From NCBI GenBank assembly GCA_963849325.1, contig CAWKHF010000012.1, forward strand, positions 832,001 to 896,000: a stretch of DNA of 64,000 nucleotides. The letters run 5' to 3'. The DNA comes from an uncultured Planctomycetota bacterium. GTDB taxonomy: Bacteria > Planctomycetota > Planctomycetia > Gemmatales > Gemmataceae. Under the pieces are notes generated by a model, which saw nothing but the letters and a program-made list of their open reading frames with translations, did not search any database and was not told the DNA's origin. A program made the translations under genes and the position numbers. This document shows, piece by piece, positions 2,384-50,668 of this stretch (the first letter of the stretch is position 1; each line of letters begins with the position of its first letter).

Positions 2384-5300
2384 ATGATGATTTCCAAACG
2401 GCCGTCCATTGCCCGATCCACTTGTCGCCGAGGGTCCGTCCTGCCCTTGCTGGCCCTTGCCCTCGTGGCCCTGATTGGCTGTGTGGCCCTGGCTGTCGAC
2501 GTGGCGATAATGACCATCGCCAAATCGCAGATCCAAAACGCCGCCGACGTAGCCGCGCTCACCGCCGCGCGCACGCTGACCGGAAATTCGGCAAGCAATT
2601 ATAATGAGAGCTCCGCCACGACGAACGCGCAGAACGCCGCCAGTTACAACCACGTCTTGGGTCAGTCGATTCAAACGTCGCAGCTCCAGCTATCCTACGG
2701 CACCTACGACTACGACCAGACCGCGCAGACCTTCAACGCCAATTTCCCACCGACGAGCGGCATGCCGCTGACCGCCGTTTCCGCGACCGTCACCTCGAGC
2801 AGTTTATCGGCCGCCTTTAGCACCGTCTTCGGAATCCAATTTCTCCCCAATGTCACCGCCACGGCCACGGCGGTCCATCGGCCGCGCGACATCGCCCTGG
2901 TCATGGATCTGTCCGGCTCGATGCGCATGGGCACCTGCCTCGGCTACGACTTTTATACCAGCTCACGCACCACGAACAACCCCGATACCCTCTACCCGAC
3001 ATTCGGACAGTATTCGTCCGGCAGCGCCGGCATGCAAGGCCCCAGCACCAATCAAACGTCCAGCTTCGATAACTACACGATCTCCCCGAGTAATACCACC
3101 GCTGCCAATTCCTCGTATTCCTTGACCTATGTGAACAACTTCTATCAAAACGCGGCCTATGCGAACACCTTGGTCCGCGCATTTGATTCGTATACCAGCA
3201 CGGACGGCGGGGTTACCTGGACCGCCCCCACTTCGGGGAGTCCGCAGCTGCCTCCCACCACGTACGCCTCGAAGCCGGGGGGAGACGTGCCTCTTTACAA
3301 GAATGGCAGCACGACGACTTATGCCACGAATGTCAACGACGTTGTGAACGGGACCACGCGGAACAAGTGGTGGGAGCTGGACGGTTACTCCGGTTGCACG
3401 AACGGTTCGTTCAACAATGCGGACCTGGGGACCAGTACCTACGCGAGCGGTTCCTTTAACGCTTATACGCAGGGTCCCGCCTACTACGGCAAGACCTTCT
3501 TCACCTGGCCCCCCGACCCGCGCCAGCCACTGACCACGGCGAACAACTCCACCCAGATCAATCAGTTCTTGCAAGATTTCGGCTACAGCACCAGCACGGA
3601 TTTCGCCAATGCCGCCTTCACGACCACGCTGGCGCAGAAAATATCGTCAACGAATAAAACCTCTATCTCGATCAATTCCGCGACACCTTTCCCGGTAAGC
3701 GGTCTTCCGACAACGTCGTTTCGTATTCTTGTCGGTTCGGAAGTCATGCTGGTAACGGCCGCATCGGGACCAGGGAACAAGACCTGGACCGTACAAAGGG
3801 GCATGGACGGGACCACAGCATCAACATACCCTGCGAACACGACGACGGTCAGTCTGTTGACCGGGCCACCCCTGTACGGGATCTATGGAGTCACCACGAC
3901 TTCGGGCAGCCAAAACTGGCCCTGGCCCAATGACAGTGGCACCACACTCAGCAATTACTTGACCAGCAAGGTATACGTGCCCGTTTCTTCCGGCGCTACC
4001 GCCCGTTTGCTCCAAACCACGGATGCGGTTTATCAGAAGATCATGCGCCTTTACAACTGGAACTACGTGGTCGATAACTACAACTCGGCGGGGAGCGGGA
4101 GCAGTTACCCCGGCACCACTCCCTGCGATTGGCGCATGCGCTTCTTCGGCACCAACGACAATACCAAGCTATTCAACTCTTCCGGGTTGTTGAACTTGCC
4201 GAGCAGTTCCACCTACACGATTAATTACAATGAGATCCTGCGCTGGATCGCCACCACGCCGAACCCCTTCCCGCAGCAGATGCGGGCGGGCCGCGTTAAG
4301 TTTTATGGATCCATCCCGACCCAGATCACGGGCAGTTGGCCCAGCTACGGCAGTACGGACCAGCAGTTCTGGAAAGAATTCATTGACTACGCGCTCGGCC
4401 TCCGGCAAACGAGCGCGACCAGCTACCAGGACATCAGCGCCATGGCCGGCTACGGCAGCGATTTCACCTGGGGAACTACGAAAACCAATTCTCCTCCTTC
4501 TGCCACGCAATACATGAATTATTCGGACAATCCTGCCCGCCCGCGGCTCCGCTTCTGGTTCGGTCCCATGAACATGGTCGATTATCTGCATAATTACAAT
4601 ATGGAGGAAAACGTCTCCGGCTATTATTTCCTTCAGCCAGGGGATACTTACGAGGCTCCGGTCTACACGGCCAAACAGGCCTACCTGGCCTCGATCAGCA
4701 CGATGCAGACCAACCATCCCAACGACTGGTTCACTACCGTTTGTTACAGCTGGCCTCGCGGTTCGTCGAATGGGACCGTGGCATCGAATATGGGTCAGGG
4801 GCGCTTCAATTGCGTGCGGTCCCCGCTCGGGCCAAATTACAGCTATGCCAGCGCCGCTCTCGTTTTCCCATTCTCCACCATCAACGCCGATGGTTCCGCC
4901 AATAGTACCGAGATCACTCCCTACGATACCGATCCTGCCACGAGCCAGGTTCCTTCGGCCAACTTCGTGGACACACCGCGCGCAGACGGAGATACCTGCT
5001 TCGCCATGTCGCTCATGCTCGCTTACAACCAGTTCGCCACCACGTCGCCCTCGGATGGCACCTTACGCTCCTTCGTCACGTCCACCCCCATCACTTTCCC
5101 GACGGGCATGGCGGGAGGAATGGGGCGCAAAGGAGCCCAGAAGGTCATCATCTTTGAAACGGATGGCCTGGCGAATACCTCCGCGACGGCCTCTCTGGTG
5201 AACATGGGATCGTACAAGTATTACAAGATCCGCTATGACATGAATAAGCCGAGCTCCAGCGAATACCCGACGGTCGGCGTATCCGTCATCAATGACTCCA

Positions 5301-45723: not shown

Positions 45724-47228
45724 GAATGGCGTTCGGTTAAGCGTAGCCTCTTTCGCTGCTTGAACTTCTGACGATCTTGGAAAGGCGGCAGCCTCCTGCC
45801 ATGATGGAGTTGTCCAGACCTCATCATCTCAGGAGGCCGCCATGCTTAGTATGTCGCAAGCCCTCGAACGCATCAAGGGTGCTACCGCCCAATGGATCGA
45901 TGCCCCCCTCATCCATTCCCTCGCACGAGCGCTCCGTCTCGGCGAACATCAGCGTCGGCTGACTCCCCTGGTCACCACCCACTTGTTCATCCGCCAAATC
46001 CTCGAAGGGAACACCTCGGTCTCCGAACTCCGCCGCCTCGCCAAGCTTTCCTTCGCAGACTCGTCCTACTGCGAGGCCCGACAACGCCTGCCCGTGCCCT
46101 TCTTCCAACGACTGGGCGTCGCCGTCCTCGACCGCTGCCGCTCCAGCGACAACGACCCACGCGCCTTGTGGCATGGTCATCGCGTCTTTTTCCTCGATGG
46201 TTCCAGTTTCTCCATGCCGGACACGCCCGACTTGCATGCCGCCTTCGGTCAGAGTGGCCAGCAGGCCCAAGGCTGCGGCTTCCCCACGGCCCACCTGCTG
46301 GTGCAGTTTCATGCCTACACCGGCTATCTGATCAACGTCATGCCGGGACCGTTACGGACGCACGACCTGGCCGACCTGACCTGGACCCACCGCGGACTGC
46401 GGGCTGGCGACGTGGTGGCCGGCGATCGCGCTTTCTGCTCCTATGCTCACCTGGCGATGCGACACCAACGAGGCGTTTTCAGCCTCTTTCGTGCCCATCA
46501 GCGTCTTATCATCTCCTTCAAGCCGCGGCGGAAGCACGTCGCGCCGAACCGTCAGCCCCGCAAGGCAGAAGCGGGCTTGCCCCACTCGCGCTGGCTGCGT
46601 CGGCTGGGCCGCGACGATCAACTCGTCGAGTACGTTAAGCCAGCCGAGTGTCCGGCCTGGATGGACAGCCAGGAGTATGAATCCTTGCCGTCGTCGCTGG
46701 TGGTCCGTGAGGTGCGTGTGCCGATCCGGACGCCGACTTGCCGGGTGCGGGAGTTGACCCTGGTGACAACGCTGTTGGATCGACGGCGTTATCCGCCGGA
46801 GGTGTTGGCTCGGCTGTACGAGAAGCGTTGGGGCGTGGAAGTCAATCTGCGTCACCTGAAACAGACCTTGCGCATGGACGTGCTGCGTTGTGAGACGTGG
46901 CAAGGTGTGTGGAAGGAACTGTTGGTCTTCGTGCTGGTGTATAATCTGGTGCGTCGGGTGATGGTGGAGGCGGCGCGACAGCAAGAGGTGGAACCAGAAC
47001 GTATTAGCTTCGCGGATGCGTGGCGTTGGTTGCGGGAAGCGCGGCATGGCGAAGAATTGCCGCGGCTGCAGGTAGTACCGTGTCGTCCCGGTCGCGTGGA
47101 ACCGCGGGTGAAGAAACGTCGGGCCAAACCCTACGACTTGATGAACCAACCACGAGCCGCGCTGCGCGAGAGATTGTTGCATCAAACGTCACCACCACAA
47201 GAAGATGCGGCTTAACCGAACGCCATTC
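45724..47228 (+). mobile_element. IS4-family insertion sequence
   Basis: Transposase 45842-47215 (DGSS, GDRAFCSY, YEKRWGVEVNLRHLK); perfect 19-bp TIR GAATGGCGTTCGGTTAAGC; 11-bp TSD GTTCCTGACAC. Confidence 0.95.
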
Positions 47229-47858: not shown

Positions 47859-47970
47859 GCGCCCTCCTACACGCCTCTTTCGCCGAACACCCAGATCAGC
47901 AGCCAGTTGGCCAGGACAGATGTTGAAGCTTGGAAAGCCAGAATGGCCGCCCGGTCTGCTGCAGCGCCTG

Positions 47971-49803
47971 GATACTCATGAAGGCTCTTGAAGCACACTT
48001 GAAGGAGACAGCACTCAGCCGCTGTCTCCTTCACCTGCTAACAACGAGAGGTCTTCATGCGCTACTTCCAACCTCCACCCGACACCCGATTCTATGCCGG
48101 CGTCGATCTCCACGCCAGATCCCTCTTCCTCGTCGTCCTCGACCACACCGGACAGATTCGCTACGCACGCAATCTCCCCGCCGCACCCCAGCCCTTCCGC
48201 AAAGCCATCACACCTTTCCGCGATGGACTCGTCGTCGGCTGCGAGTGCATGCACTGCTGGTACTGGCTGGCCGACGCCTGCCGCGACGACAACATCCCCT
48301 TCCTGCTCGGACACGCCTGGGCAATGAAAGCCGTCCACGGCAGCAAGACCAAGTGCGACCGTAAAGACGCCGAGGCCATCGCCCACCTGCTCAAGGGCGG
48401 CAACTTCCCGCTCGCCTACGCCTACCCCAAAGAACGACGTGGACTCCGCGACCTGCTCCGCGCACGCCTCCGCCTGGTCCGCCAACGCGCCGAACTCTAC
48501 GGCCACGTCCACACCGCACGACGACAGCTCAACTTGCCGCCCATCTCCAACGATGTCAAATACAAGTCCAAGCGTGCCAGCGTCCTGGCCGACATCGACG
48601 ACGACTGCGTCCGTCGCCGCGTCGAGGCCGACCTGTCGCTGCTGGAGCCGCTCGATACCACCATCCGACGACTGGAGAAGGACATCGAGGTCGCCGCACG
48701 ACAGCACTATGCCACCGAGATGGCCGTGCTGCAATCGACACCCGGCGTCGGCCTCGTCATCGCCCTGACCATCCTTTTGGAGATCGACACCCTCGAACGC
48801 TTCGACACCCGCCAGCAGTTCTGCTCCTATGCCCGGCTATGCGGCGCCCGCCAGGAGTCGGCCGGCAAGAAGGTGGGCACGGGCAACGCCAAGCAGGGCA
48901 ACGCCTGGCTGAAGTGGGCCTTCTCCGAGGCGGCCGTACTCAGCGCCCAGAAGGACGAACGCATCGGCCAGTACCTGGACAAGCTGTCGGGCCGTCTGGG
49001 CCAAGCCAAAGCCTTGTCGGCATTGGCCCACAAGCTGGGACGAGCCTTCTACCACATGCTCCACAAAAAGGAGGTCTTTCAGATCGACCAATTCCTGAGA
49101 CACTGAGAAGCCAGGGCGCGGCCGGCGAGCCGAAGCCGAACGGGAGCCGCTACGGGCTAACCCTTACGACGACCCCCACCATCCAGGGAGCATCGACTCC
49201 GCAGTGGGGGTCCGGGACCGCCCAGGCATCCAGCCGCTTTGATGGGACGCCGGCCGCGTCCGTATTATTTCGACCGCGGTGGTCGCAAAAACAGGCCGCG
49301 ATCCGCCGGTGGGTCGGGGGACCAACGGGATCAGCGTAACGCTGTCCCAAGGAATCGGGCTTGGCTTTGAGCCATCCCACGTCCTCCCGACCCCCGCCAG
49401 ACCGCGACCCGTGATCGCAAGGAGCCATTCGCCCGGACGATCCGCCCCAGTCGCCAGCCTGGCCGAACGGGACGCTCCTTTGGGGGAGTGAGCCAGTCGC
49501 TTTTTGAATGGCGGCGAAGCTGGGAACGTATGAATATCGGGACCGGCCAGGGCAGGTTCCCTGGCACAGCCGCCTGGTCCTTCGGGTCTGGGCCGCCGGA
49601 GTCCGCATGAGTGTTGGGTGCGGTTCGCCTCGGCCGTGGGCCGAAGGTGTTCCGCGTCCGTCGCTGATATCCAAGCCGGATCGCCGAGGACGATTGCTCA
49701 CTGCCGCTGCAACCTTGTTCGGTCATCCTTCCGGCAAGAAAAACGCCGGAGATACCCGTTCCCGTGGAAAATATTTTTACTTGACACCAAGAGCCTTATG
49801 AGT
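47971..49803 (+). mobile_element. IS110-family (IS1111-type) element with long 3' non-coding region
   Basis: Recombinase 48057-49106 (AGVDLH, GCE, KCDRKDA; PGVG, SYARL..ESAG); inverted repeats ACTCAT(G)AAGGCTCTTG at both ends; no TSD. Confidence 0.9.
49107..49780 (+). ncRNA. Candidate bridge/seek RNA region
   Basis: About 670 nt non-coding, several hairpins, short matches to target and element end. Confidence 0.55.
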
Positions 49804-49839
49804 GTTCGGCCGCATTGTCTGCTGCAATCCTTGAGCGAA

Positions 49840-50349
49840 TTACCACCAACACCTGGCCTGCCCGACGCCTGACTTCGGGATCAGCCCAATCCAATCGGGA
49901 TTCAAGCGCCGTCCGTAGCGCCCGGAGGAGTGAACTCCCGCCACACGGGCGTAGCGGGCGAACACCCGCCGACTGCCTCCTTCAATACTCCGCAAAATAC
50001 ATTGCGTAAGCCTCTCGCGCTGTCCTGCGTTCAGGTGGCAACGCTTTAATCGATGCAGGATTTTTTCTTTGATGTATCCCGATCGAAAAAACCAGGGATC
50101 TACTTCGAGGAAGCAGATGGCATCTTCCACTGCTTCGGGTTCTTGCTGTCCCAACTCCTGGAGTCTCTTGGCAAGGCCGCCGGGGAAAGCTAAGTGATCG
50201 TAGAGACCCAGAAACGAATCGCGGGCAGAAGCGTAATTCTCCGAGCGATTTTGCACGGCTTCATTAAAGCGCCGATTCAGTGCGGCCAGGCGCGTCGTAC
50301 TCTCGACAATTTGCCGATGGCGAACGGTTATGCTGCGATTCTTGGACAT
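49840..50349 (-). CDS. Gene-cassette hypothetical protein
   Basis: ATG 5 nt after GTTCGGC; visibly lower GC; FLEVDPWFFRSGYIKE; ends next to attC. Confidence 0.7.
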   Translation of the reverse strand: MSKNRSITVRHRQIVESTTRLAALNRRFNEAVQNRSENYASARDSFLGLYDHLAFPGGLAKRLQELGQQEPEAVEDAICFLEVDPWFFRSGYIKEKILHRLKRCHLNAGQRERLTQCILRSIEGGSRRVFARYARVAGVHSSGRYGRRLNPDWIGLIPKSGVGQARCWW

Positions 50350-50373: not shown

Positions 50374-50389
50374 CGCGCACGTGCGCGAT

Positions 50390-50457
50390 CTAGCAAGGCT
50401 GCTGCGCAACCTAGCAAGGCTGCTGCGCGACCTAGCAAGGCGCTGCGCGATCTAGCA
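50390..50457. repeat. 21-bp tandem repeat, about 3.3 copies
   Basis: CTAGCAAGGCTGCTGCGCRAC. Confidence 0.85.
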
Positions 50458-50668
50458 CGACTCTCCTTATCTATCCGCAACGTTGCGCAACCGTCAAGGA
50501 AAAACGACTCCCCTTTGAGATTTTTCAGCCTCGCCACCGCCACCGTGGCCAGGGAGTCGGTCTTGACGGCCCTGCGGCGCCTGCATTACTATTCGCCGGC
50601 CTCTCGGTGCCTGCGTGCCGTCGATACCGCACTCCCACCTCCGATACTGCTCCAGAAAGGACGCCGCC

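Follow-up and report, generated by a model that had tools for sequence, protein, structure and literature searches.

The 3′ non-coding region (NCR) of an insertion sequence in the genome of a soil planctomycete (Gemmataceae) very probably encodes a plus-strand guide RNA of about 500 nt, of the seekRNA or bridge RNA type, which tells the DEDD transposase of the element which DNA to recombine. The element, an IS110-family (IS1111-type) insertion sequence of 1,833 bp, occupies positions 47972-49804 (plus strand) of the window, the stretch of 64,000 nucleotides of planctomycete DNA analysed here, and interrupts an attC-like repeat. A long, multi-domain RNA with guides for the target and for the element ends had been proposed for this 3′ region in the original prediction, made from the window alone, and covariation among relatives supports it. 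The accompanying idea of a possible new RNA-guided recombinase has to be given up, the enzyme being an ordinary DEDD transposase and the seekRNAs of attC-targeting IS1111 elements having already been published.

Structured RNA downstream of the transposase gene

A homologue was present in 43 of the 267 genomes of the order, and more were collected in scans of genome and soil metagenome contigs. The working set comprises 80 loci with 64-100% transposase protein identity, and gammaproteobacterial elements of 1.5 kb (about 45-50% protein identity) served as an outgroup only. When plasmids were searched by tblastn for comparators of the ISKpn4 type, no element named ISKpn4 was among the hits, and the best match was an Alteromonas element at 48%. 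In the 49 relatives for which both NCR ends were located, the median 3′ NCR length is 687 nt. The alignment of the whole NCR (885 columns) gave an unusable fold, and therefore folding was done by domain, using the alignments A1 (49440-49668, 41 sequences), A5 (49112-49266, 38 sequences), and A2 (49256-49452, 37 sequences). Pair counts were set against 500 shuffles for A1 and A5.

The A1 fold consists of 37 pairs with 97.6% of cells paired and a covariation of 0.254, compared to 0.143 in shuffled alignments, none of which reached the observed value (0/500); sliding the 3′ partners as a control reduced the covariation to at most 0.073. Similarly, the A5 fold (25 pairs, 95.8% of cells paired) has a covariation of 0.251 versus 0.110 in the shuffles (0/500 reach it), and five pairs of the outer stem of its module, described below, are changed on both sides. 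In A2, 11 of the 33 pairs are changed on both sides, for example CG17/GC13/AU3, CG20/GC15, GC19/AU17, and UA24/CG12. The frequent G-U pairs fit the plus strand only. The 3′ tail is thus a conserved, covariation-supported structured RNA on the plus strand.

Three domains can be distinguished along this RNA. Module 1 (49120-49255), a stand-alone target-binding stem-loop, sits directly after the stop codon of the transposase gene; its outer stem is formed by 49120-27 and 49248-55, and a 5′ loop strand with the motif AGCC and a guide segment (T1) faces a 3′ loop strand (49227-47) with another one (B1). The module, together with its covarying stem, is conserved from Gemmataceae to gammaproteobacteria. 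The middle domain (49297-49407), a long stem around two hairpins forming a three-way junction, lies between module 1 and the long-range helix P0; it is specific to the Gemmataceae lineage and absent from the tails of about 480 nt of gammaproteobacterial relatives. The closed domain (49442-49623), equivalent to a bridge RNA, is delimited by P0 (49442-49/49615-23), which encloses module 2 and a donor multiloop. Within the family P0 shows one compensatory change, C-G to U-A in four sequences, and its counterpart in the gammaproteobacterial outgroup covaries repeatedly (GCGCUUACA/UGUAAGUGC, UUGUUUACA/UGUAAACAA, GUACUUGCA/UGUGAGUAC). Module 2 (49450-49517), the second target-binding loop, has an outer stem (49450-55/49512-17), an inner hairpin (49473-90), and a 3′ strand (49491-511); the outer-stem pairs 14/80, 15/79, and 16/78 are changed on both sides in 3, 10, and 8 sequences, respectively. 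The donor part contains two structural hairpins (49547-49596), H3a (49547-64) and H3b (49569-96), the latter including CGCCTGGT; in these hairpins, which correspond to helices 5-7 of A1, 9 of the 17 pairs are changed on both sides.

Both target-binding modules follow a common loop plan: an outer stem, AGCC, a 9-10-nt segment ending in AAC, GGG, and an inner structure, followed on the 3′ side by CC-N-G-N-CG-N-(T)TTTGA(T/A)-(T)GG and the outer stem again. A tandem duplication of the tail was considered and rejected, since the alignment of 49107-49440 with 49441-49810 scores 55 against 40.5 for shuffles (sd 7.6, max 68), which is not significant; the likeness of modules 1 and 2 is limited to the loop motifs and the layout. 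The gammaproteobacterial relatives (about 49% protein identity) have the same arrangement of two target loops, P0, donor multiloop, and right-end guide. What is restricted to the Gemmataceae lineage is the extra domain together with some inserts.

Proposed guides for the element ends and for the target

The original prediction pointed to four strings in the tail as candidate guides, and all of them are present: GGCCGAAC (49461-49468), CGCCTGGT (49571-49578), ATGAGTGTT (49607-49615), and TATC in GATATCC (49666-49672); the flanks and element ends with which they were compared are likewise real. To estimate how many such matches arise by chance, exact words shared on either strand between 49107-49780 and the junctions (empty target, left junction, right junction, and circle junction) were counted. 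There are 4 common 8-mers versus 1.34 (sd 1.56) in dinucleotide shuffles, 47 of 500 of which reach 4; one common 9-mer versus 0.34 (115/500 shuffles); and 16 common 7-mers versus 5.4 (3/500). Moreover, CGCCTGGT and GGCCGAAC recur nearby outside the tail, at 48471 and 47810. Matches of 8 or 9 nt within the window are thus within chance, and the decision was made by comparison with relatives.

The right-end (donor) guide B3, or 'segC', covers 49607-49615 and reads ATGAGTGTT, that is ATGAG-TG-TT: the sense of the right end ATGAG, a putative 2-nt core K-G, and TT of the flank. Positions 1-5 of its 7-mer (49607-13) are identical to those of the terminal 7-mer of the same element in 42 of 45 loci, whereas in shuffled pairings the match holds in 12.5 loci on average and in 21 at most. 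Eight variants of the 5-mer occur (ATGAG, ATGAC, ATGCG, ATCCG, ATACG, ATGTG, ATGGG, and AGAGA), and the non-matching loci are L131, L163, and L164. In agreement with this, an unbiased mutual-information scan of all tail columns against all end and flank columns picked 49610 and 49611 for positions 4 and 5 of the right end. The match cannot be explained by an inverted repeat, because the left end is constant while the right end varies. After the core the guide continues as TTGGG, resembling the right flank.

The left-end (donor) guide T3, TATGAATATC (49529-49538), includes ATGAATATC at 49530-38 and complements G + ATACTCATA/G of the left end. Measured against G and the nine bases that open the left end, T3 is complementary at 8 or more of the 10 positions in 33 of 38 loci, not counting 11 rows that the regular expression had extracted wrongly and that were dropped. 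In the divergent clade, where the left end is GATRCTGTTG, T3 has changed to CAACAGCATC.

These comparisons divide the strings named at the outset. ATGAGTGTT tracks the right end as described, and GGCCGAAC, situated in a conserved internal loop with a covarying closing stem, complements the right flank of the target. By contrast, CGCCTGGT, supposed to guide to the empty target, has 7 of its 8 bases paired in the covarying helices 6-7 of A1 and is retained by only 3 of the 10 loci that share the left flank CGCCTGG, and TATC (49668-71), supposed to recognize the left end, is kept in one of 28 aligned relatives. Of the four original matches, then, two hold and two do not. Three guide segments, at 49132-41, 49235-43, and 49530-38, had been missed.

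Two segments complement the right side of the target, G+TTCGGC: T1, GAAGCCGAAC (49132-49141), in the 5′ loop strand of module 1, and T2, TGGCCGAAC (49460-49468), which contains GGCCGAAC, in module 2. The reverse complement of T1 is GTT[A/C/G]GGC in all 68 loci, and T2 is more variable. In the copy L003, T2 follows the flank, having CCTAAC where the flank is GTTAGG. In the divergent clade (L024, L025, L178, and L053) T2 no longer complements the GTTCGGC box (GTTTCTGG, GTTGGTG, GTTTTCG) whereas T1 still does, which suggests that the specificity of the two target loops has diverged.

On the 3′ side of the loops, the left-target guide B1 of module 1, CGCTTTGAT (CGCTTTG-AT, 49235-49243), reads the sense of the left junction CGCCTGG|AT, and B2, CGCTTTTTGAA (49498-49508), occupies the 3′ strand of module 2. 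B1 covaries with the left flank at position -5: the flank carries G in 12 of the 14 loci with G in B1, compared to 14 of the other 38 (Fisher p 0.004), and C in 17 of the 38 loci with C in B1, compared to 0 of the other 14 (p 0.002). In L025, CGGCGGGAT is identical to the unusual left junction of that locus. The 3′ loop strand of the gammaproteobacterial outgroup, ...YTTG-AT-TAG, also matches its own left flank in the sense orientation (TCACTTG, GCCTTG, GCTTTG). An antisense reading of the 3′ loop strands, with CCNGNCGC complementing GCGNNTGG, typically gives 6 of 8 matches, no covariation with the own site, and a constant mismatch at -3; it was dropped in favor of the sense reading when the gammaproteobacterial relatives showed the sense match. 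Mutual information between the left- or right-flank columns and the NCR columns, calculated for the 41-sequence set, yielded nothing.

As in seekRNAs, T1 and T2 are situated 5′ of B1 and B2 in loops closed by covarying stems, and the matches overlap at the shared G. As in bridge RNAs, the P0 domain holds both T2/B2 and T3/B3, and each end of the element covaries with its donor guide.

The element, its transposase, and its target site

The ends of the element were fixed by comparison with other copies and with empty target sites in the same genome (8.16 Mb, 14 contigs). The left end begins with ATACTC at 47972 and the right end finishes with ATGAGTG (49798-49804); the G at 47971/49804 is shared and can be assigned to neither the flank nor the element end. 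A second full copy (L002, G000:C7:540413-542367) is 99% identical and has other flanks, and L003 is an 85% identical, 5′-truncated copy. The locus L004/L008 (G000:C5:954490-954908, minus strand) is a miniature derivative in which 80 bp from the left end are joined to the final 309 bp (window 49502-49810); the donor guides are retained and the target loops are missing. Three solo right ends of about 55 bp (L009, L010, and L013) abut GTT-type flanks, and empty copies of the target repeat are found elsewhere in the genome (L011, L012, L014, and L015).

The transposase gene (48057-49106, plus strand) encodes 349 amino acids and is open in both full copies. The protein contains the domains DEDD_Tnp_IS110 (PF01548, E 1.4e-11, 44.8 bits) and Transposase_20 (PF02371, E 1e-16, 61.5 bits), both above the curated cut-offs, and is an ordinary IS110-family DEDD transposase in an IS1111-type layout rather than a new recombinase. 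The IS1111 group is defined by subterminal inverted repeats of 7-17 bp (PMC11208160, PMC11187229). Here the left subterminal repeat, CTCATGAAGGCTCTTG (47975-47990), matches CAAGAGCCTT-ATGAG of the right end in reverse complement, apart from one indel; the right end (49781-49804) comprises TTGACA (49781-86), the subterminal repeat (49788-802), and the terminal ATGAGTG. Other features of the group are also found: the longer non-coding region is 3′ of the transposase gene tnp (698 nt, versus 85 nt in the 5′ NCR), and the insertion is site- and orientation-specific with no long target duplication, a single G being shared. The TTGAC of the right end is invariant in 28 of 28 aligned relatives, and across the joined ends TTGACA is separated from GATACT (47971-47976) by a 17-nt spacer. 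By analogy with Pjunc of ISEc11 (cited in PMC11187229), TTGACA and GATACT are the candidate -35 and -10 boxes of a junction promoter.

In L002 the last 103 bp of the element (window 49708-49810) are tandemly repeated once more (locus positions 3353-3455) before the normal right flank, and shorter duplications of the right end occur in L051 (CCTTATGCGTC TTATGCGGG) and in the gammaproteobacterial relatives L066 and L090. About 750 bp upstream of the element, the window contains an open reading frame (ORF) for a 457-amino-acid DDE_Tnp_1 (PF01609) transposase of a different insertion sequence (45842-47215, plus strand). On the other side, three to four direct repeats of about 20 nt, similar to CTAGCAAGGCTGCTGCGC, are found at 50388-50460, just upstream of a minus-strand ORF (49840-50349) with no Pfam match.

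The interrupted target repeat is about 90 nt long and is bounded by GCCGAAC...GTTCGGC, the insertion being at G|TT. Its left part (47882-47971) extends from an R''-like box GCCGAAC (47882-47888) to the left flank ...GCAGCGCCTGG, whose last bases, CGCCTGG (47965-47971), finish with the G common to the element end. The right flank TTCGGCC (49805-49811) together with the preceding G forms an R'-like box GTTCGGC. Related insertions have left flanks ending in TGG in 58 of 64 readable cases and right flanks starting with TTCGGC in 33 of 45 readable right junctions, all of them in one orientation. The IS1111-attC group targets the R' (GTTRRRY) end of integron attC sites, and relatives of the present element carry the canonical GCCTAAC guide.

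The target repeat therefore looks attC-like, judged by its sequence; its true attC identity is unproven, and several results weigh against it. The integron integrase model TIGR02249 gave no score over the cut-off in the assembly, which is 85% complete; the repeat folds as single-stranded DNA no better than shuffles (z -0.72); and target-like sites are scattered across the genome. A search of Rfam, which has no attC model, with four empty target sites gave chance-level matches only. The 19-nt target pattern with at most two mismatches occurs 35 times in the genome versus 35 times for the reversed control, and its one match in the window, at three mismatches, is at chance level. In one region (G000:C5:59798-71597), three target-like sites (C5:64373, 65106, and 67221) are located near weak, fragmentary integron-integrase matches (C5:59798-60445 and 71247-71597), all below the cut-off; this region may be a decayed integron.

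Proposed mechanism, alternatives, and known systems

In the mechanism that we propose, the RNA would be co-transcribed with tnp, probably from the TTGACA-17-GATACT promoter formed when the ends join, then processed and bound by the transposase. T1 and T2 (GCCGAAC) would pair with the top strand of the core and right flank, G|TTCGGC, and T3 with the top strand of the core and left end, G|ATACTCAT. Pairing with the bottom strand would fall to the 3′ guides, B1 on the left flank and core, B3 on the right end ATGAG and the 2-nt core K-G. Since the 3′ guides run into the partner sequence (AT after B1, TTGGG after B3), they read like integrated junctions, which fits the published observations that flanks matter for excision of IS1111 elements (PMC11187229) and that excision substrates of IS621 bind across both loops (PMC13626964). 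Both target loops would be active in recombination. The two loops often carry different guides (GCCGAAC versus GCCTAAC). It is possible, and we suggest it tentatively, that attC-inserting IS1111 elements from Gemmataceae to gammaproteobacteria hard-wire two independent target loops in a transcript of about 500 nt; the element may read two target variants, or use a target-loop-only RNA for direct transfer or excision and the fused loop for insertion.

Several observations weigh against a guide RNA of this kind. T1 and T2 fit their own right flank no better than the flanks of other elements (116 of 2000 shuffles are as good for T1 and 829 of 2000 for T2), and 16 of 38 loci combine GTTAGGC in both guides with the flank GTTCGGC. 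Such a lack of tracking would follow from conservation of the box as part of the target; the assignment of T1 and T2 accordingly rests on conservation, position, and analogy. In the window copy itself, B1 matches the left junction at 7 of 9 positions (one mismatch would be a U-G wobble) and T3 matches at only 8 of 10. At the first core position the RNA has U, whereas the DNA usually has G (49612 versus 49803; at position 6 of B3 the two agree in only 13 of 45 loci); we conjecture that this base lies inside a 2-nt core which can be inherited from the target. A local helix that competes for the 3′ strand of P0 (GGUGCGG/CCGCGUC) is compatible with all sequences, and Rfam has no match at E≤1 around the element. 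The sole hint of expression is a 691-nt contig from a rhizosphere RNA library, which contains the tail of a relative (about 87% alike) and corresponds exactly to 49120-49810, beginning with module 1 and reaching the right end; transposase-gene contigs in that library are separate and shallower, and the contig proves neither transcription nor RNA ends.

Three further observations touch the same subjects. At the position of B1 homologous to the core base (49240), U occurs in 38 and G in 19 of 57 extracted loci. Only two sequencing runs hold a small share of the sequence words (0.05 and 0.04), their contigs of relatives carrying no start, end, or strand information. A scan for promoters and terminators gave one promoter-like site (49239-49268), whose second hexamer lies in sequence that is variable among relatives, and one terminator-like site (49245-49261); both are at, or close to, what shuffles give by chance.

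Among the alternatives to the two-loop RNA, the most serious assigns the working bridge RNA to the P0-closed domain (49442-49623) alone and regards module 1 and 49297-49407 as a decayed duplicate, an element for stability or processing of the mRNA 3′ end, or a regulator or decoy titrating the transposase. With about 180 nt, this domain by itself has the published content of a target-binding loop (TBL) and a donor-binding loop (DBL) and is close in size to the 145-170 nt 'long seekRNA' described in the text of PMC11187229; besides, the middle domain is lineage-specific, and the miniature derivative L004 retains only 49502-49810 of the tail. We nevertheless consider it unlikely, as module 1 has the better target guides, T1 being kept in every locus and T2 drifting in the divergent clade, the left-flank covariation was measured on B1, a strand of module 1, and this module with its covarying stem is conserved across the two phyla. 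If the second loop or the extra domain is dispensable, the finding shrinks to one more member of a known family.

Far less probable is a tail that forms a structured RNA or a set of DNA sites devoid of guide function, the matches to ends and flanks being due to chance or inverted repeats. The exact matches of 8 or 9 nt within the window do indeed stay within chance, and that of CGCCTGGT is a chance match, but B3 follows the right end through eight variants while the left end is constant, the mutual-information scan finds exactly the collinear columns, and B1 follows the flank. Protein coding by the tail is the least credible explanation of all. Frames of 70-183 amino acids are open in the window at 49150-49701 and 49331-49726 on the minus strand and at 49508-49801 and 49279-49491 on the plus strand; however, none of the four has a Pfam match at E≤0.01, they are in frame and open in only 2, 10, 8, and 2 of the 41 relatives, respectively, and the pattern of substitutions is that of base pairs.

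RNA-guided DEDD recombinases are under development as programmable tools for genome insertion, and mechanistic knowledge of them comes mostly from IS621 and a few IS1111 members. The family described here provides a natural reprogramming series, with eight right-end variants accompanied by matching changes of the guide and with covariation of the left flank; it offers a defined donor multiloop whose closing long-range helix is conserved across phyla, adds Planctomycetota to the hosts in which IS1111 elements show attC-type targeting, and raises the concrete question of why attC-inserting IS1111 elements have two target loops.

The guide RNA proposed above for the two-loop element is closest to those of the IS1111 group. 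NCR-derived seekRNAs, in which the top-strand match precedes the bottom-strand match in the 5′ to 3′ direction, co-purify with IS1111 transposases, including those of ISKpn4 and ISPst6, and the seekRNAs of the attC-targeting members ISKpn4, ISPst6, and ISPa25 have been described experimentally (PMC11187229, Siddiquee et al. 2024). The present element shares with the seekRNA elements of this group a DEDD transposase of about 340-350 amino acids, subterminal inverted repeats, and a long NCR 3′ of tnp, and with their seekRNAs the 5′-top/3′-bottom order of guides and the overlap of the matches at the insertion point (PMC11187229). Similarly to ISKpn4, ISPst6, and ISPa25, it inserts at one end of an attC-type site in a single orientation. 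It differs from the published attC-targeting members in its planctomycete host, and from its nearest gammaproteobacterial relatives (transposases about 49% identical) in a tail of about 700 nt versus roughly 480 nt. In place of one seekRNA of 82-86 nt with a long form of 145-170 nt, as given in the text of PMC11187229, whose figures or supplements may show more, it has two target loops and an extra domain of about 110 nt.

With the IS621 bridge RNA (PMC11208160, PMC11208158), the RNA proposed here has in common separate sets of target and donor guides on a single molecule, the reading of both strands around a 2-nt core, and guides that run into the partner sequence like handshake guides. It differs in being encoded 3′ rather than 5′ of the gene, in the reversed order of guides, in the second target loop, and in the putative core, K-G instead of CT. 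Further, its donor guides are situated in a multiloop closed by a long-range helix, not in a simple internal loop, in agreement with the IS1111 orthologues in PMC11208160, where donor nucleotides in a multiloop are noted for many of them.

A target-loop-only RNA occurs beside the full TBL+DBL RNA in CazIS110-1 (bioRxiv 10.1101/2025.10.25.684509). There, truncation of the bridge RNA itself gives the TBL-only species, whereas here a separate target loop with its own guides is predicted to be encoded upstream; since the truncated RNA cooperates with the full one in CazIS110-1, a separately encoded target loop is a testable idea. ISPpu9 with Ssr9 in Pseudomonas putida (PMC12288879) is also an IS110-family element with an RNA gene 3′ of tnp, insertion in repeats, and scattered partial or modular copies, a likeness by description only, and its targets, unlike those of the present element, are REP sequences. 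The published texts, in the parts available to us, describe either one seekRNA of 70-100 nt with a long form of 145-170 nt or one target and one donor loop; we found no paper that mentions two target loops, and the figures or supplements of PMC11187229 may already show them. Compared with all these systems, the element is of a known kind in an expanded form, and what is unusual is its architecture with two target loops and one extra domain.

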